From a phage, in the sequence record PZ445527.1: 64,000 nucleotides of DNA, one strand, 5' to 3'. The notes beneath the pieces are model-generated. The model was not told the origin of the DNA, did no database searches, and saw only the letters and a list, made by a program, of their open reading frames with translations. How positions within the stretch are numbered: the stretch's first letter is position 1; each line of letters starts with the position of its first letter. Positions 2,930 to 52,731 of this stretch are shown here, in pieces. The translations under genes were made by a program, and so were the position numbers.

Positions 2930-3372
2930 TTAAAATTAAGTTAACTCATCCAGATTGTATGCCTAAGATTGGCTCTGAAGATGCCGCAGGTATGGATCTG
3001 CGAGCATTCTTTGGTACTAACCCTGCCGCAGATTTACGTGCTATTGCACCAGGCAAATCCTTAATGATTGACACCGGTGTCGCGGTGGAAATTCCGCGAG
3101 GTTGGTTCGGTTTGGTGGTTCCGCGTAGTTCTTTAGGAAAGCGCCATTTGATGATCGCAAACACCGTAGGAGTAATCGACTCAGACTATCGTGGCACTAT
3201 TAAGATGAACCTCTATAATTATGGTTCTGAGATGCAAACTCTGGAGAATTTCGAAAGACTTTGTCAGTTAGTAGTAGTACCACACTACTCAACTCATAAT
3301 TTTGAAATTGTTGACGAACTAGGGGAGACTAATCGTGGGGAAGGCGGATTTGGAAGTTCAGGAAGTAAATAA
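2926..3372 (+). CDS. dut: dUTPase
   Basis: dUTPase motifs AGMDL, RSS, IDSDYRG, GGFGSSG; start overlaps D15 stop. Confidence 0.9.
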   Translation: MIKIKLTHPDCMPKIGSEDAAGMDLRAFFGTNPAADLRAIAPGKSLMIDTGVAVEIPRGWFGLVVPRSSLGKRHLMIANTVGVIDSDYRGTIKMNLYNYGSEMQTLENFERLCQLVVVPHYSTHNFEIVDELGETNRGEGGFGSSGSK

Positions 3373-3612: not shown

Positions 3613-3644
3613 CCCCGGTGGACAATCCACCGGGGTTTTCTTTT
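3613..3644. terminator. bidirectional rho-independent terminator between convergent dut and tail-fibre genes
   Basis: hairpin CCCCGGTGG-acaat-CCACCGGGG followed by T-run on + and A-run upstream (T-run on -). Confidence 0.7.
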
Positions 3645-5826
3645 ATTTAGCAAGAAGTTGTTTTACTAGTTCCTTGAGTTCGTCAATTTGCTTCTGTTGT
3701 GCTTGAATACAACCTAAAAGATCCATTACAATTGGGTTAATATCTACACTAGGTCTATCTTGATATTCCTCCCCGATCTTGTTTCCTTCGTCATCAAAAA
3801 CCTCGGTTCCTGGTATTGGGAATTGGTTGTGTTTTATATATTGAGGCGCTATTTTTTCCGCATCCTCAGCAATTATCCCAAATCTAACACGTTGTTTTTC
3901 ATCATCCTTATAAACGAAGTTAACCATTTCAAGGTTTGTAACTCTTGATAGAGCCTCATTGCTATCTGCGGTTGAAATATCCTTTTTATACTCCCTTCCT
4001 GAAGTACCTTGAACTGCAAGAACACCACCTGTACTTGGAAGGGTGTTAATAAATTGATTAGTGTTATCATATATATTTCTTTGTACAAAATAAGGAGGAT
4101 TTCCAGCTAGCGAAGGTATCTCAAAAGATACTCTTGCTCCAATATCTGTTGAGCCACTTCTACCAGTAGCAGCTATCTCAACTCTAGGGTAAGAATTTTG
4201 TTTCAAAAAAACACAAGTTCCATTAATACTAGCATTAGAGTATAACTCAGCGAAAATGTTAACTGTTGCGTCTTCACCTATTTGAAGAATCTTTTTCCTA
4301 TAAGACCCGTCTGCTTTATATGAGTGGGCCGAAAGACTTCCGTCTGTTTCATGACCTAACCTAATAGCAGCTGTCCCATCTTCTCTATAAAAAGCAATCC
4401 ATTGATTAACTGACGCACTAGGACGCAACATAACAATAGCTTCCGAATTTAGGAATTTTTGCGTTTCCTCCCATTGTCTACCAATCTTTTGCCTTGCTTC
4501 TGAGGCTGTTATTGCTCCAGTTCCACCTCGCTCAATAGCAAGAGGTTTTGACTCTCCAGTAGTTGACTGAACGCCCCACTTGCCGTTATTGGCAATAAAC
4601 ATGCTAAGATTGCCATCAGGTGATGTAATCTGATTGAACTTGCCAGCATCTGTACCTGTAGTACAAAAAACTCCTTGCACCCCAAGATTTACCTTTGCGT
4701 CTGTTACATTCCTTGCGCCAGTACCTCCTTTGGCAACTGCCAAAGGTATAAACTGTTTACTGGTATTATCATAAGCACCCCATCCCTGTAGGTCATTAAT
4801 ATATAAATGGTAATTACCATTACCACTTTTTATTTGAGTCTCTCCACTAGGTAATTGAAAGTATCTATTAATTTGATTATCAAGAACTCCCTTCCACCAA
4901 ATAGCTCCAACATTTTTTGTCCAGCGATAGCTATATAGTGTCCCAGTATAATCACCAACAAATACCCCAGTGTAACCATGGACGCCGTCCATAGCAGAGA
5001 TAAAACCAGCTAATACGTTTTCTGAAGAAGCAATACTTGGATATCCAGTAGTTGTACTCTTAACAATACGTATAAAGCCTAGAAATTCAGATGGTTCAAC
5101 AGTAATATCAGAAACGTGTCTTGGAGAATCCCCAAGACCTATAGAAGCTTTCATACCAGAAGCTACATTTTCAGCTTTAGTAGCAGATGCCGCCGCATTA
5201 GTTTCTGAGGTCTTAGCATTGGTTTCTGATGCTTTAGCAGCATTAGCACTGTTAGCAGCAGCAGTTTTACTATTATTAGCATTAGTTTCTGAAGTTTTAG
5301 CAGCAGAAGCAGATGCAGCAGCATTAGTTTCTGAGGTTTTTGCTGCTGAAGCAGATGCAGCCGCAGCAGTTTTGCTACTATTAGCATTGGTTTCTGAGGT
5401 TTTTGCAGCCGTCTCACTAGCTTTTGCATTGGTTTCTGAAGTTTTTGCAGCCGTCTCACTAGCTTTTGCGTTAGTCTCAGAAGTTTTTGCGTTAGCCTCA
5501 GAAGTTTTGGCGGCTCCAGCACTGTTAGCGGACGCAGTAGCAGAAGAAGCAGACTGAGTTGCAGACTGCTGAGAAGATGCCGCAGAAATTTCTGCTTCAT
5601 TTTCAGAATCTTTAGCATTTAGCTCCGACTGTTTTGCATTAATTTCAGATTGCTTAGCTGCTGCAGCAGATGCTTTAGAAGACTCTATAGCAGAGACTAG
5701 CTCTCCTGCTGTAATAGAGCTGATTGTACTTCCCAGAACTATAGTATATTTAGGATATTTACTTGCAGTTATACTATTCTGGTCCATAGTGACCATTTGC
5801 TGTAAAATTATTTTAGTTATAGCCAT
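3643..5826 (-). CDS. L-shaped tail fibre protein (pb1-like) with C-terminal intramolecular chaperone (peptidase S74-like) domain
   Basis: N-terminal Ala/Ser/Thr-rich repeats (AKTSETNAKASETAAK...); C-terminal auto-chaperone-like domain; first gene of the late operon. Confidence 0.75.
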   Translation of the reverse strand: MAITKIILQQMVTMDQNSITASKYPKYTIVLGSTISSITAGELVSAIESSKASAAAAKQSEINAKQSELNAKDSENEAEISAASSQQSATQSASSATASANSAGAAKTSEANAKTSETNAKASETAAKTSETNAKASETAAKTSETNANSSKTAAAASASAAKTSETNAAASASAAKTSETNANNSKTAAANSANAAKASETNAKTSETNAAASATKAENVASGMKASIGLGDSPRHVSDITVEPSEFLGFIRIVKSTTTGYPSIASSENVLAGFISAMDGVHGYTGVFVGDYTGTLYSYRWTKNVGAIWWKGVLDNQINRYFQLPSGETQIKSGNGNYHLYINDLQGWGAYDNTSKQFIPLAVAKGGTGARNVTDAKVNLGVQGVFCTTGTDAGKFNQITSPDGNLSMFIANNGKWGVQSTTGESKPLAIERGGTGAITASEARQKIGRQWEETQKFLNSEAIVMLRPSASVNQWIAFYREDGTAAIRLGHETDGSLSAHSYKADGSYRKKILQIGEDATVNIFAELYSNASINGTCVFLKQNSYPRVEIAATGRSGSTDIGARVSFEIPSLAGNPPYFVQRNIYDNTNQFINTLPSTGGVLAVQGTSGREYKKDISTADSNEALSRVTNLEMVNFVYKDDEKQRVRFGIIAEDAEKIAPQYIKHNQFPIPGTEVFDDEGNKIGEEYQDRPSVDINPIVMDLLGCIQAQQKQIDELKELVKQLLAK

Positions 5827-47231: not shown

Positions 47232-47771
47232 TTACTTGTTAAGCTCTTCTAAATCTGGTATATATCCAAGAAACTCCTCAATTAAAGCGTACTCCCCAGC
47301 AATCTCCTGTCTAGACTTATTCGCTAAGTCTACTGCCAGAGCTAAGTCTTCATAATTGAAGGTTCCTTTCATACGTTTTCGGCCTGTTTCATCCGTAATT
47401 TGAACTCTCCATTTCTGCCTATCTTTAGCCCACATAACATTTGCATATCCAGATTTGGACTTTCTATGCTTCTTATTACGACAATTTTGTGGTTTAGATG
47501 CAGAACGTAAGTTTTTCCATCGGTTATTTTGTGGATTTCTATCTATGTGATCCACAAATTCAGGTATATATCCTTCCATATATAGGAAGGCCCATCTATG
47601 GGCTCCCTGCCTCTCCCCTTCCACCATTATCATTATGTAATCATTGTTATATAGAGTTCCAGCTTCCATTCCCCTCTTTACATACTGATTATTACCATCT
47701 ATCTTCCAGGTAAATATCCCGGTTTCTGGATTATATTCTAGTAATTCTTTTAGTCTTTCTTGAGTGATCAC
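47232..47771 (-). CDS. HNH homing endonuclease
   Basis: HNH motif EFVDHIDRNPQNNRWKNLR; AP2-like C-terminal region. Confidence 0.75.
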   Translation of the reverse strand: MITQERLKELLEYNPETGIFTWKIDGNNQYVKRGMEAGTLYNNDYIMIMVEGERQGAHRWAFLYMEGYIPEFVDHIDRNPQNNRWKNLRSASKPQNCRNKKHRKSKSGYANVMWAKDRQKWRVQITDETGRKRMKGTFNYEDLALAVDLANKSRQEIAGEYALIEEFLGYIPDLEELNK

Positions 47772-48247: not shown

Positions 48248-48664
48248 TTAATCTACTGCATGTATAAATCTTTTCCTAACTAGATACATAGTTATTGGGT
48301 AAATTGAGTACATAAGTATAGGGGAGAAAAGGGTGAAATACGCTGTAACTCCCCCAGCTAACATCAAAGGTATTAATGCTAGAGTAAGGGCCATAAGAAT
48401 CATACCGAATGAAACAGCCAAAGCTATGGATATAGGATTCTCTAGTTCCATCCATAACCAACAATATTTCGTATCTCTGTGGCAATTGCATTTACAAACG
48501 CCGAATAAACCCATAATTATATACTCTAGTCCGTGAATAACCTTTATTAATAAGCTATTTCGGGTAGTTAATGCAATGATAGTAAAGACTATCATTAAAA
48601 CGAATACTACTAGACTTATTTTCCAAATACCTAGCAGCATCATAGTGAATAGTTCTGCAAACAT
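48248..48664 (-). CDS. integral membrane protein
   Basis: 138 aa, about 4 TM helices. Confidence 0.5.
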   Translation of the reverse strand: MFAELFTMMLLGIWKISLVVFVLMIVFTIIALTTRNSLLIKVIHGLEYIIMGLFGVCKCNCHRDTKYCWLWMELENPISIALAVSFGMILMALTLALIPLMLAGGVTAYFTLFSPILMYSIYPITMYLVRKRFIHAVD

Positions 48665-48703: not shown

Positions 48704-48730
48704 GCCTAAAAAGGCGGGAGTATTCCCGCC
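48704..48730 (-). terminator. rho-independent terminator after endolysin gene
   Basis: hairpin GGCGGGA-gtat-TCCCGCC followed on - strand by TTTTTAGG. Confidence 0.55.
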
Positions 48731-48739
48731 GTATCTTAC

Positions 48740-49153
48740 TTAAATCAATTCTATATGTGGGCCATCAAAAGTACCACGTTGGATTTCATCCTTATAACTT
48801 CCGTTCTGGTTCCAATCACCACCCCATCTAATCTTTACCCCTAGCTCTTCTGCTGCCTTAAAGAAGGCATCTGCCACTAATTTGAATGATTCTAAATCAT
48901 TCCAATCAATCTTCCCATTTTTAAGAGGAGCAAAGTCAACGGCCAGCCCTTGTACGTGTTTTGACTTGCTCGGGTCTTTTAAAAACGAGGTTCCATTCTT
49001 AATATTTTGGGCGCTTTGTTCTAAGGAACGTAATCCTTCTGTAATTGTAAAATCATATGGGCTTAATTCTAAAGCTCTATGAGTTACTCTTACTAAATCT
49101 GGATGAACACCCTTTAATCTATCTAAACTTCTTTTACTAAATTTAAAACTCAT
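48740..49153 (-). CDS. endolysin, L-alanyl-D-glutamate peptidase (T5 endolysin-like)
   Basis: 137 aa; H...D...H zinc-peptidase signature (HVQGLAVDF ... GDWNQ...HIE); adjacent to holin. Confidence 0.8.
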   Translation of the reverse strand: MSFKFSKRSLDRLKGVHPDLVRVTHRALELSPYDFTITEGLRSLEQSAQNIKNGTSFLKDPSKSKHVQGLAVDFAPLKNGKIDWNDLESFKLVADAFFKAAEELGVKIRWGGDWNQNGSYKDEIQRGTFDGPHIELI

Positions 49154-49860
49154 ATTGACCTACCTAAAGACCTCTGTTGTGGGGAACAGAGCTTTGCTAA
49201 ATATTCCTTGAACTGTTCAGAATCAGCTGTATCTACCGGATTATCTTTCCAAGCAATACCAATGTACCCAGCATAGATATTTTTTAGATTGAAGTATGGA
49301 CAAGTGTATATGTAATTAAAAGTAATGTTTTTAAACGCAGGTATATTTAACCCCATATATTTATTTACTCTTACACTTAAATCCGATGCGTAGTTAAAGC
49401 CCTCTAAATGACGTCTGTATAATTCAGACGTTTTATTTACCGCTTTATCGGCCAAGTCAGCCCTATCTAATTGCGCATTACTTTCCCATGCAATAATATT
49501 GGAATAATCATTGATAGCATCTGGTTTATACTTGACTACAAAAACAGCATCTGCACCCGTCTGAGAGAAGAGAACCATGCTCTTTTCCCTCGCCACATTA
49601 GGGAAGTTATCTATCCTCTGGGTTTGTAAATCCTGTAAAACTGCAGACGTGGAAAAAGTCTTTAAGAATGACATCACTTCACTAGTATTACTAACGAATA
49701 AGAAAATAATGACAGCAACTAAGATAGTTAGCAGACGTTTAAGAAGCGATGCTGGGTCTTTCGCTTCTTGGAGCAGTACTGTTAATAATTGTAAGAACTT
49801 TTCCAATTTGTAACCTCCTCTAACCAGTACCATTATACTAATTTTGGAGGAAAATTTCAA
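49150..49860 (-). CDS. holin (T5-type)
   Basis: 236 aa with single TM helix (LLTILVAVIIFLFV); immediately upstream of endolysin with overlapping stop/start. Confidence 0.65.
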   Translation of the reverse strand: MKFSSKISIMVLVRGGYKLEKFLQLLTVLLQEAKDPASLLKRLLTILVAVIIFLFVSNTSEVMSFLKTFSTSAVLQDLQTQRIDNFPNVAREKSMVLFSQTGADAVFVVKYKPDAINDYSNIIAWESNAQLDRADLADKAVNKTSELYRRHLEGFNYASDLSVRVNKYMGLNIPAFKNITFNYIYTCPYFNLKNIYAGYIGIAWKDNPVDTADSEQFKEYLAKLCSPQQRSLGRSI

Positions 49861-49962
49861 TGGGTTTTTAAATGTTATACTTGGAGCACAAAATTATGTC
49901 GTTGTCAAGAAGAATTTTAGATAAAAGAAAAGCCAGGGTACTTAACCCTGGCTTAAAATTAC

Positions 49963-50562
49963 TTACTCTTCGTTGCGCTCCTCGGATTGAGGTAACTGCG
50001 CTTTATTATATTGCTCAGATCGATATTTTGCCAAGATTTCAATACGTTTATGGATTTCCTTGCTATCTAGATAGATATTTTTGTTGTCTTTTACCATCTC
50101 GTCGATTTCATCTATTGAGAAGAACGGATAGTAGACATCTAGCATCATATCTTCTACGAACTTGTTGTAAGATTCATAGGCTTTCTTGATTTCTTGACCT
50201 TTCTCACAGAACCCGCCAGAGAACGTGTGTCCCATTAGCGTAGCATGTGGATGTACTACCCATCCATGACAAGATAGGAAAATTGTGCAGTAAGCAGAAG
50301 CACTAGGACCAATCAGGTGTCCTATAACTGTTCCACGGCAATTAGCAATTAAGTTAGATAACTGTGCAGCGGTATCAACATAGCCACCAGGGCCATTAAT
50401 CATCAGATTAATTTCATCGTCCTCATTTGCCTGCATAAGTACCATTGATAAATCACGGTATTCATCCGGCGGACCAAGTTCTTCATCAAAGAAAAAGGTA
50501 TACTCGTTAGATTGGCGAATAGAGTGGAACAGGTTAGTCTTTTCTTCTTTTTTATTAGTCAT
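49963..50562 (-). CDS. ClpP-like serine peptidase
   Basis: INGPGGYV and GPSASA motifs resembling the ClpP family. Confidence 0.5.
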   Translation of the reverse strand: MTNKKEEKTNLFHSIRQSNEYTFFFDEELGPPDEYRDLSMVLMQANEDDEINLMINGPGGYVDTAAQLSNLIANCRGTVIGHLIGPSASAYCTIFLSCHGWVVHPHATLMGHTFSGGFCEKGQEIKKAYESYNKFVEDMMLDVYYPFFSIDEIDEMVKDNKNIYLDSKEIHKRIEILAKYRSEQYNKAQLPQSEERNEE

Positions 50563-50574
50563 AGCGATCCTTGA

Positions 50575-51327
50575 TTATCCAACTAGTGGTTCTAGCTCTA
50601 AGTCACAGAAGTTATACACTTCTAGTTTAAGGTTATTGATACCATCGAATTTATTAACTAATTCATGAGTAATATATTTTGCAGGAATACCACTTTCAGA
50701 TGGATGATCTGATTTAATAGTGAACTTCTGCTCAGCGGGCACTACATTTACTAGTAAAGAATCCATATCTAAATGGTTTGTTTCTCTGAGTAACTCTCCT
50801 TCATTGGGGAATCTCACATCTGTTATTACGGCGACATCTGGGTCGTCTTTAGCGATGGATTGCTCCAGAATTATGAGCCAAATGCGTTCATGTACTAGCT
50901 GCCTTCCTAGCTCTGTTCCTACGAGCTGTAACATTTTTCTCGGAGAAATAAATAAACTATAAAGTCCATCTTCTTTATTCTCTGAGATAAGTTGTTGAGG
51001 ATTAAGATATTTTTCCTCAAAAATAGGCCAAACGTACGAGAAGTCCTCAAACTTATCGATACCATATTTAAACCATACGTCTCTAGCTCGCTCCAATTGA
51101 TATTGTGTGACCGTAAACCATTGGTCAATCTCTTTCCCCCTGCGCTCTCCTAGAAACTCTGGAGTTACCCCGAGGATTACGGATGCAAGCTCATAAACTG
51201 GTTTAGCAAAACTGTAACGACGTGGTAAACACGTTGGATACGTGTCATTACACCAATCGATAATTAATTTTGCAACGGTATCTTTTCCTGCACCTGCCTC
51301 GCCATGTAAACCTACTAATACTGACAT
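50575..51327 (-). CDS. dnk: deoxynucleoside monophosphate kinase
   Basis: P-loop GLHGEAGAGKDT similar to T4-type dNMP kinase; 250 aa. Confidence 0.65.
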   Translation of the reverse strand: MSVLVGLHGEAGAGKDTVAKLIIDWCNDTYPTCLPRRYSFAKPVYELASVILGVTPEFLGERRGKEIDQWFTVTQYQLERARDVWFKYGIDKFEDFSYVWPIFEEKYLNPQQLISENKEDGLYSLFISPRKMLQLVGTELGRQLVHERIWLIILEQSIAKDDPDVAVITDVRFPNEGELLRETNHLDMDSLLVNVVPAEQKFTIKSDHPSESGIPAKYITHELVNKFDGINNLKLEVYNFCDLELEPLVG

Positions 51328-51680
51328 TAATCTTTCCTATTGTTAATGGGTGGATAGTAAATTAAGCAACGTTTTTCTTGTAAATCTTGGCGATAGAAGC
51401 AAACCATACTAGTCAATCGTGAGATATATGAATATTCTGCCTCCCGACATTTTGCTAACATATTCCAATCTTTATATGGTACAACAACTACTACACCATC
51501 TTCGCCATTTGTAGCTAATTTCTTTTCGAATTTGAAATCAAAGCTACAAGGCTGAAGTCCTTTAGGCCAATCTACATGAGCTGTTGGTAGCTCATGTGTA
51601 GGTTCTGGCTTTACTTCTTGTGCACAGCCTGTGATTGTGATTGCGGCTGTGAGCAGTATTCCACACTTCCAGTTAAACAT
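51327..51680 (-). CDS. candidate o-spanin (outer-membrane lipoprotein)
   Basis: signal peptide with lipobox ITGC; overlaps 3' end of upstream i-spanin-like gene in a different frame. Confidence 0.5.
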   Translation of the reverse strand: MFNWKCGILLTAAITITGCAQEVKPEPTHELPTAHVDWPKGLQPCSFDFKFEKKLATNGEDGVVVVVPYKDWNMLAKCREAEYSYISRLTSMVCFYRQDLQEKRCLIYYPPINNRKD

Positions 51681-52054
51681 GCTAATCTTTCCTCGAACTC
51701 CTTACTCTGCTTTTTAGCAATTAATGTAACCAATCCAGGCTTTGCAGCTATAATATCTTGACGACTAAGTGCTTTATCAAGCTGGGAGATCTTCTTATCA
51801 AGATCTTGTTGGGAAATATTATGGAAAGTGAAATATTGATTCATACGTGTTTCACGTTGTTCACTTTCAACTTTAATCTTGTTTAAGGAAGTTTCTAGAG
51901 TAGAGATCTTTTTAGTAGCTACTGCAAGATCACCTGATAGAGTCTCAACCTTATTAACTAAGTGATAAGCACCGAATCCGATGCCTATCGCTAGACCTGC
52001 TCCCAGGATATACCATTTACCTTGCCATAGAGAACTAATAAAGTTTTTTATCAT
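51611..52054 (-). CDS. candidate i-spanin (Rz-like)
   Basis: N-terminal TM helix then coiled-coil; 147 aa. Confidence 0.5.
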   Translation of the reverse strand: MIKNFISSLWQGKWYILGAGLAIGIGFGAYHLVNKVETLSGDLAVATKKISTLETSLNKIKVESEQRETRMNQYFTFHNISQQDLDKKISQLDKALSRQDIIAAKPGLVTLIAKKQSKEFEERLACLTGSVEYCSQPQSQSQAVHKK

Positions 52055-52731
52055 CTTTTCATATTCCTGAATGACGTAACCGTATCAAATCCATGTGCTG
52101 CTAGGCGGTCTTTATCAGAAGTGGTAATAATATCTGGTTCTCCTGTTCCAAGTACACCCCAAATATACTGCTCGATTCTTTGGTGCAGCCGATATAGGTT
52201 AGGTTCCACACTCTGCCACGGAATACCTGATAGGTGTAGACGCGGATTAGTTATAACCTTGAAGTATTTATTGTTATCTTTATCATTTGGAACTAATGAA
52301 TCTAGAACTGCTAACGGTACTCTTAACTCAGTTAAGGCTTCTTCAGCTTTGGGGGTAACTTCTTCTTGCCATGCTAAGATAGACTCTTTTGGCTTCCCCC
52401 TATTTATGTCTAGCAAAGAAAACCCTGTTGACCATCCCTTCTCCTCCAAAATTTCTAACGCCTCGTCCAAACTGAAGGTTTTTACTTGGGTATCCAGTAC
52501 ATCAATGTGGTATAACCAGTAAATCTCCCCAGCTAGGAAGAAAGGCAAAATTTTAAAGTAGCCAATCTTTCCCTCAATACGAGCAATCCTACGTTCTTGC
52601 ATGATCATATAGTTGTCATCATCTGGGGCTTTTATTGTTAGCTCTTCAGTTTTACGTTCCCAAACGCGATCGGGGTCGAACAAACTGTTCTGCAAATCAT
52701 ACACATCTACGAATTTAGAGATGATTCTCAT
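52051..52731 (-). CDS. hypothetical protein
   Basis: 226 aa ORF. Confidence 0.5.
   Translation of the reverse strand: MRIISKFVDVYDLQNSLFDPDRVWERKTEELTIKAPDDDNYMIMQERRIARIEGKIGYFKILPFFLAGEIYWLYHIDVLDTQVKTFSLDEALEILEEKGWSTGFSLLDINRGKPKESILAWQEEVTPKAEEALTELRVPLAVLDSLVPNDKDNNKYFKVITNPRLHLSGIPWQSVEPNLYRLHQRIEQYIWGVLGTGEPDIITTSDKDRLAAHGFDTVTSFRNMKR

Follow-up and report, generated by a model that had tools for sequence, protein, structure and literature searches.

Gene organisation of the locus

The window, that is, the whole stretch of DNA analysed, was 64,000 nt of phage sequence (PZ445527.1). Two open reading frames (ORFs) of 147 and 117 amino acids, candidates for an i-spanin and an o-spanin gene, were located at 51327–52054 as originally predicted (Table 1). 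According to the ORF list and the raw sequence, the ORFs lie in different frames and have exactly 70 nt in common, with the o-spanin gene downstream; the overlap had been given as about 70 nt. Two-component spanins are recognised, among other features, by an o-spanin gene that is embedded in the i-spanin gene, overlaps it or directly follows it.

The two genes are tightly joined to their neighbours. The stop codon of a T5.047-like gene overlaps the ATG of the i-spanin gene (ATGA), and the o-spanin stop and the start of the dNMP kinase gene (dnk) overlap by 1 nt, which suggests that dnk is translationally coupled to the o-spanin gene and belongs to the same operon. The T5.047-like gene is preceded by a hairpin with its T-run and, after these, by a TATAAT-containing stretch, at the position of an annotated terminator and promoter in T5. 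A Clp-like protease gene follows dnk and is itself followed by a terminator-like hairpin. The holin and endolysin genes have a promoter-like site and a terminator-like hairpin of their own. These tight junctions and terminator- and promoter-like signals, read from consensus matches and gene junctions, point to a spanin operon (T5.047-like gene, i-spanin, o-spanin, dnk and Clp-like protease) that would be separate from the holin–endolysin unit.

In place of the listed holin start, TTG 49860, we adopted TTG 49806, which gives a protein of 218 amino acids as in T5 and has GGAGG ahead of it (GGAGG, 7 nt, TTG). The extent of the holin–endolysin cassette, originally predicted as 48740–49860, was corrected accordingly to 48740–49806. 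The separation of the pair from this cassette had been put at about 2 kb; the holin start and the o-spanin stop are about 1.5 kb apart. The ClpP-like protease and dNMP kinase genes that were said to lie in between were found there.

Table 1. Features of the spanin locus and its surroundings in the 64,000-nt window.
Feature	Position	Strand	Evidence or remarks
T5.047-like gene, first of the putative spanin transcription unit	52051..52731	(-)	PHROG 4243, E 5e-105
Candidate i-spanin gene	51611..52054	(-)	147-aa ORF, ATG start; T5.045 ortholog; PHROG 739
Predicted i-spanin N-terminal transmembrane helix, aa 15-33	51956..52012	(-)	Hydropathy; inside modelled helix 3-77
Predicted i-spanin periplasmic alpha-helical, coiled-coil-prone region, aa 34-98	51761..51955	(-)	AlphaFold2 model and heptad analysis
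70-nt overlap	51611..51680	(-)	i-spanin aa 126-147 (C126, C134 included) and o-spanin aa 1-23
Candidate o-spanin gene	51327..51680	(-)	117-aa precursor ORF, ATG start; T5.044 ortholog; PHROG 812
Predicted o-spanin lipoprotein signal peptide, aa 1-19	51624..51680	(-)	PROSITE-like lipoprotein pattern; lipobox ITGC 51624-51635
o-spanin conserved Cys pair C94...C105, motif CFYRQDLQEKRC	51366..51401	(-)	Aligned to T4 PseT.2 C87/C98
dNMP kinase (dnk)	50575..51327	(-)	Pfam DNMK, PHROG 139; 247/250 identical to T5 Dnk
Clp-like protease, last in putative operon	49963..50562	(-)	Pfam CLP_protease, PHROG 1827; 197/199 identical to T5.042
T-type holin, 218 aa, TTG start	49150..49806	(-)	Pfam Phage_holin_T, E 6e-112; 206/218 identical to T5.041
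Endolysin, M15 L-alanyl-D-glutamate peptidase type	48740..49153	(-)	Pfam Peptidase_M15_4, PHROG 465
Hairpin and T-run, then TATAAT-containing stretch, upstream of T5.047-like gene	about 52840-52765	(-)	Sequence inspection
Terminator-like hairpin after Clp-like gene	49930-49954	(-)	Terminator scan
Promoter-like site ahead of holin, TTGAAA-17-TATAAT	49832-49860	(-)	11/12 match
Terminator-like hairpin after endolysin	48713-48730	(-)	Terminator scan

Orthology with the spanins of phage T5

Judged by its sequence matches, the window is from a T5-like phage (Demerecviridae). A 1-kb query around the pair matched 447 phage records. The matches listed, with identities of up to 96%, all came from T5-like phages that infect Salmonella, Escherichia or Shigella. 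The original prediction had proposed a comparison with annotated T5-like spanins, and this comparison identified T5.045 as the ortholog of the i-spanin and T5.044 as that of the o-spanin, with further counterparts in Bf23, Shivani and HildyBeyeler. The o-spanin was identical to T5.044 at 113/117 positions (96.6%) and the i-spanin to T5.045 at 124/147 positions (84%), both without gaps. With Bf23, the o-spanin shared 106/117 and the i-spanin 142/147 residues. RefSeq names both T5.044 and T5.045 'Rz-like spanin', and explicit i-spanin and o-spanin annotations were found in Bf23, Shivani, HildyBeyeler, IrisVonRoten and others. The two proteins matched two PHROG families that are also named 'Rz-like spanin' (i-spanin: PHROG 739, E 6e-37; o-spanin: PHROG 812, E 9e-30), with no competing family for either.

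Kongari et al. 2018 (PMC6139136) define a T5 family for i-spanins and likewise for o-spanins. Its members there are T5, EPS7, Stitch, SPC35, AKFV33, FFH1, DT57C, My1, phiR201 and Shivani, and the overlap of the T5 spanin genes is given as 70 bp (PMC6139136). The finding, including the length of the overlap, has therefore already been described, and the type phage T5 has this spanin pair among its known, annotated genes.

Phage T5 and the window have in common the protein lengths (147 and 117 amino acids), the 70-nt overlap, the lipobox ITGC and all periplasmic cysteines. The flanking order of endolysin (lys), holin, Clp-like protease, dnk, o-spanin and i-spanin is also shared, and together with the T5.047-like gene at its end the order in the window equals that of T5.040–T5.047. 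The sole difference in synteny is the HNH endonuclease gene hegF, which in T5 lies directly upstream of the i-spanin gene and is missing from the window. At the protein level, the i-spanin differs from that of T5 at 23/147 positions, located at the N-terminus and on the helix surface, and the o-spanin, unlike that of T5, has an additional cysteine (Cys6) in the cleaved signal peptide.

Targeting signals and predicted structure

Transmembrane segments and lipoprotein signals were called heuristically, from simple hydropathy and pattern rules. In the i-spanin, the best 19-residue Kyte-Doolittle window was at residues 15–33 (YILGAGLAIGIGFGAYHLV, mean 1.55), and there was no second hydrophobic segment. 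Among the 14 residues ahead of residue 15 are two lysines (K3 and K13), whereas acidic residues are absent, a charge pattern that fits an N-in/C-out (type II) topology. Within the predicted transmembrane helix, ILGAGLAIGI was invariant among 22 distinct relatives.

The periplasmic part of the i-spanin is predicted to be mainly helical. A single-sequence AlphaFold2 model (pLDDT 66.6), used for secondary structure only, placed helices at residues 3–77, 82–97, 106–114 and 118–128, with block-mean pLDDT values of 89–96 over residues 41–70. In the best heptad register, 75% of the a and d positions were hydrophobic over residues 34–77, compared with 32% overall. The type II membrane protein with a coiled-coil periplasmic domain that had been claimed is thus in keeping with the heuristic hydropathy call, the modelled helix and the heptad pattern. 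Two periplasmic cysteines, C126 and C134, were invariant in the relatives.

The N-terminus of the 117-aa protein (MFNWK, CGILLTAAIT, ITG|C) matched the PROSITE-style lipoprotein pattern, with Cys19 as the lipobox cysteine. The predicted mature part comprises 99 residues and begins with C-A-Q, so that positions +2 and +3 are Ala and Gln. It contains four more cysteines (45, 78, 94 and 105) that were invariant in the relatives; the additional Cys6 lies within the signal peptide. This agrees with the lipoprotein with an ITGC lipobox and several cysteines that had been described from the ORF. The cysteine pair formed by C94 and C105 was also present in phages KpGranit and PSTCR5. The single-sequence AlphaFold2 model of the o-spanin had low confidence (pLDDT 48.8) and does not fix the fold. 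In both subunits, periplasmic cysteines would be available for homotypic intermolecular disulfides.

In Escherichia coli, Asp at position +2 of a lipoprotein leads to avoidance of the Lol pathway. Such an inner-membrane retention signal, which the original prediction had named as evidence against its own reading, was absent, since position +2 is occupied by Ala and not by Asp. For this reason the o-spanin is predicted to be sorted to the outer membrane.

Homology to T4 spanins and comparison with lambda and P2

The spanin subunits of phage T4 fall into the same two PHROG families as the window proteins (PseT.3: PHROG 739, E 1.3e-37; PseT.2: PHROG 812, E 5e-42). The relationship was also detected directly with BLASTP, for the o-spanin with PseT.2 (E 1e-7) and for the i-spanin with PseT.3 (E 4e-5), the latter two having the KPGLV (AKPGLV) motif in common. 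In the o-spanin alignment, CFYRQDLQEKRC was aligned on CYYRQELKEDKC of PseT.2, with C94/C105 at the place of C87/C98 and an identical spacing (C-x10-C). In the T4-like phages Merlin and PEi20, tblastn with the o-spanin further matched a gene annotated as o-spanin and a pseT.2 gene. A lambda Rz-am Rz1-am lysogen is complemented by T4 pseT.3 and pseT.2, and T4 spanin function needs both cysteines of PseT.2 (PMC6139136).

The identity of the window spanins to PseT.3 and PseT.2 was only 24–30%, and there are several differences. T4 is the prototype of 'separated' spanin genes, whereas the window pair overlaps by 70 nt. The T5-type i-spanin is longer at its C-terminus, by approximately 30 residues with two cysteines that PseT.3 lacks, and the T5-type o-spanin has four periplasmic cysteines compared with two in PseT.2. 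The strand and helix elements in the low-confidence o-spanin model loosely resemble the beta1-alpha-beta2 organisation of PseT.2 (PMC6139136). In both T4 and the window phage, the spanin genes are far from the holin and endolysin genes, among early-type genes. The T4 spanin genes are remote from t and e (PMC6139136), and therefore remoteness from the holin and endolysin is not unusual for the PseT.3/PseT.2 superfamily.

The comparison with the spanins of lambda (Rz/Rz1) and P2 (LysB/LysC) draws on PMC6139136 and established knowledge. Both consist, like the window pair, of a type II inner-membrane protein and an outer-membrane lipoprotein, have their two genes on shared DNA but in different frames and contain periplasmic cysteines. 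P2 LysB/LysC is the prototype of the 'overlapped' architecture, which the window pair shares. In contrast, lambda Rz1, the prototype of the 'embedded' architecture, is wholly embedded in Rz, and its mature form of 40 residues is proline-rich and unstructured, unlike the window o-spanin. The lambda and P2 spanin genes also lie within the lysis cassette, unlike the window pair. Sequence similarity between the window spanins and those of lambda or P2 was not detectable.

Conservation in related phages

The comparison set comprised 23 IMG/VR loci with relatives of the i-spanin, together with T5, Bf23 and Shivani. The overlapped architecture was analysed in 23 loci, corresponding to 22 distinct sequences, and lipoboxes and cysteines were tabulated for 24 loci; the window was included in both sets. 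Both ORFs were present in all 24 tabulated loci, with the ITGC lipobox, Ala at +2 and conserved cysteine positions; the +2/+3 residues of the relatives were Ala-Gln or Ala-Glu. ITITGCA was invariant in the distinct overlapped sequences (22/22). The start codon of the o-spanin was GTG in three further loci (L006, L014 and L016), in which the ITGC-A lipobox was identical. The same 70-nt overlap was found in T5, Bf23 and 19 IMG/VR relatives.

Neither frame contained an internal stop codon in the 22 distinct sequences from the 23 overlapped loci. In the part that encodes the i-spanin only, 72/124 third codon positions were variable, compared with 33/125 and 17/125 of the other codon positions. The part that encodes the o-spanin only gave 47/95 compared with 14/94 and 9/95. 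Given this third-position-skewed variation and the lack of internal stops, both genes are real and under purifying selection.

In Shivani-type phages, an inserted endonuclease gene splits the i-spanin from the o-spanin gene and both are intact. Among distant Demerecviridae, KpGranit (Sugarlandvirus) has the order spanins, dnk, Clp, holin and endolysin, with an overlap of 88 nt and the lipobox ASGC, and PSTCR5 (Priunavirus) has an overlapped spanin pair with an overlap of 49 nt and the lipobox IVGC. The overlapped pair is therefore conserved across these Demerecviridae. The full gene order was confirmed for T5, Bf23 and KpGranit. The distance of the pair from the lysis cassette, which had been deemed unusual, is the normal, conserved layout in T5 and in more distant Demerecviridae.

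Alternative explanations

All features by which a two-component spanin is recognised in sequence were found in the pair, which bears out the i-spanin/o-spanin architecture that had been claimed. We therefore assign the two genes, with high confidence, as an i-spanin/o-spanin pair orthologous to T5.045/T5.044. No T5-family spanin was found in the literature to have been studied directly by experiment, and the assignment of spanin function thus rests on homology and targeting signals. This leaves some room for a reading in which the 117-aa protein is an outer-membrane lipoprotein with a function other than lysis, such as masking a receptor or excluding superinfecting phages in the manner of T5 Llp, and the 147-aa protein is an unrelated neighbour. 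The location of the pair outside the holin–endolysin unit, in a putative operon with nucleotide-metabolism and protease genes, would suit such a lipoprotein, as would the silence of Pfam and NCBIfam, which had no model that recognised either protein. However, the T4 spanin genes are likewise remote from t and e, and the only PHROG matches of the two proteins were to spanin families. Both proteins are homologous to validated T4 spanin subunits, down to the essential cysteine pair, and in divergent Demerecviridae the two genes remain physically linked and overlapping. We consider a non-lysis lipoprotein very improbable.

Out-of-frame overlapping ORFs are often artefacts, and many deposited relatives annotate only one gene of the pair or mislabel it. 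One ORF could on these grounds be a chance open frame arising from the overlap with a single real gene. Yet each ORF has a long coding part of its own that shows the third-position skew and is free of internal stops in the 22 distinct sequences. Each ORF also has an independent significant PHROG match, and the Shivani-type phages keep both genes intact even where they are separated. The chance of a spurious frame is negligible in our view, and the two-gene spanin pair is the reading followed below.

A unimolecular spanin of the T1 gp11 type was rejected for the 117-aa protein. Its 19-residue hydropathy windows above 1.2 start only at residues 1–2, its C-terminus (YYPPINNRKD) is polar and a separate i-spanin exists. 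Sub-threshold matches in Pfam and NCBIfam (Med21, FtsL and similar) were disregarded as coiled-coil noise, because these databases hold no model for the T5-type spanin family. Sequence searches of the PDB found no relative with a solved structure; the matches to Crov539 (E 0.049) and to a designed protein (E 0.1) were attributed to chance.

Proposed role in lysis

The model of spanin collapse and membrane fusion considered here was taken from work on lambda and T4 as summarised in PMC6139136. The i-spanin would be anchored in the inner membrane by its single N-terminal helix, with the helical, coiled-coil-prone domain extending into the periplasm. The o-spanin would be exported, receive its lipid on Cys19 and lose its signal peptide to signal peptidase II, after which the Lol pathway should deliver it to the outer membrane, into the inner leaflet. 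Through their C-terminal parts, the two proteins may then bind each other and form a bridge that spans the periplasm and passes through the meshes of the peptidoglycan. The complex could be stabilised by homotypic disulfides, most likely via C94 and C105 of the o-spanin. Once the holin triggers and the endolysin destroys the peptidoglycan, the freed spanin complexes would collapse and either fuse the outer membrane or disrupt it, so that the progeny is released.

Since the spanin genes appear to sit in a separate transcription unit, the spanins are probably synthesised earlier than the holin and the endolysin and independently of them. Early synthesis would do no harm, because spanins have no activity as long as the peptidoglycan is intact. 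The putative co-transcription with dnk and the Clp-like protease gene, driven by a promoter other than the holin–endolysin one, also raises the idea that the bridges are assembled long before lysis and serve a further purpose before it, for instance tethering or stabilising the envelope during the long T5 cycle. We regard this as a speculative and very unlikely addition to the lysis function.

Annotation of T5-type spanin genes

The finding is correct but ordinary, and matters little beyond the right annotation; the correct labels for the pair are i-spanin and o-spanin. As lysis genes need not cluster, searches for spanins should extend beyond the neighbourhood of the holin and endolysin genes. 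In many deposited genomes of T5-like phages, the spanin genes are called hypothetical or their two names are swapped. The o-spanin is truncated in the annotation of KpGranit and omitted from that of PSTCR5.

Spanin genes and their junctions

In the Shivani-type relatives (loci L002, L023, L024 and L025), the spanin overlap was interrupted by a 718-nt insert, as already reported by Kongari 2018 (PMC6139136). The insert contained a gene for a 232-aa protein with T5orf172/MUG113 (GIY-YIG-like), CapR and zinc-finger domains, and both of its junctions carried a motif of approximately 12 nt, TTGGA(A/G)TACTG. This duplication of the motif suggests that the overlapped arrangement is the ancestral form. 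The i-spanin of these relatives was shortened to 141 aa, with C126 and C134 retained, and the first five residues of their o-spanin were altered.

At the other end of the i-spanin gene in the window, its ATG was overlapped by the stop codon of the upstream T5.047-like gene (junction 52051-52054), the product of which was identical to T5.047 at 131 of 233 positions. In phage T5, by contrast, these two genes are separated by hegF, which encodes an HNH homing endonuclease and is missing from the window. The window o-spanin has an additional cysteine at position 6 (codon 51663-51665, minus strand), inside the cleaved signal peptide. In the comparison of loci, it was shared only with L004, the other relatives inspected having leucine, and it is probably neutral.

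Several deposited records of relatives contained faulty spanin annotations. In Klebsiella phage KpGranit, the CDS named 'putative o-spanin' was cut to 39 aa, without signal and lipobox, while the full ORF begins at ATG 3001. The o-spanin of Providencia phage PSTCR5 was unannotated, and in several other records the label 'i-spanin' was wrongly given to the o-spanin.

Lysis genes and their surroundings

The endolysin of the window was identical to that of phage T5 at 89 of 137 residues (65%), whereas the neighbouring holin, Clp-like protease and dNMP kinase (dnk) were 94–99% identical to their T5 counterparts. This difference in identity suggests that the endolysin allele was swapped by mosaic replacement inside an otherwise conserved block. 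The T5.039 homolog, directly upstream of which lies the endolysin terminator, is probably a multi-pass membrane protein; T5.039 itself is annotated with four transmembrane domains. A part in lysis control is conceivable for this homolog. At the position equivalent to the homing-endonuclease-like ORF of the window, Shivani has an HNH/AP2 homing endonuclease.

The holin starts at TTG 49806 (minus strand), preceded by GGAGG, which gives a T-type holin of 218 aa, the same length as T5.041. The start at TTG 49860 (minus strand; 236 aa), from the mechanical ORF call, was rejected; this TTG opens TTGAAA, the −35 hexamer in a promoter-like sequence ahead of the holin (TTGAAA-17-TATAAT, 11/12 match, 49832-49860, minus strand).

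Coordinates of features in the window and in relatives
Feature	Record	Coordinates	Strand	Assignment
Homing-endonuclease-like ORF, 179 aa	Window	47232-47771	-	HNH_3 endonuclease domain, E 1e-13
T5.039 homolog, 138 aa, hydrophobic	Window	48248-48664	-	PHROG 5944
Endolysin	Window	48740-49153	-	
T5.047-like gene	Window	52051-52731	-	
Shivani-type split spanin locus	L002 (Shivani)	3628-5073		
Shivani-type split spanin locus	L023	3001-4446		
Full o-spanin ORF	L029 (KpGranit)	3001-3330		
o-Spanin	L030 (PSTCR5)	3001-3327
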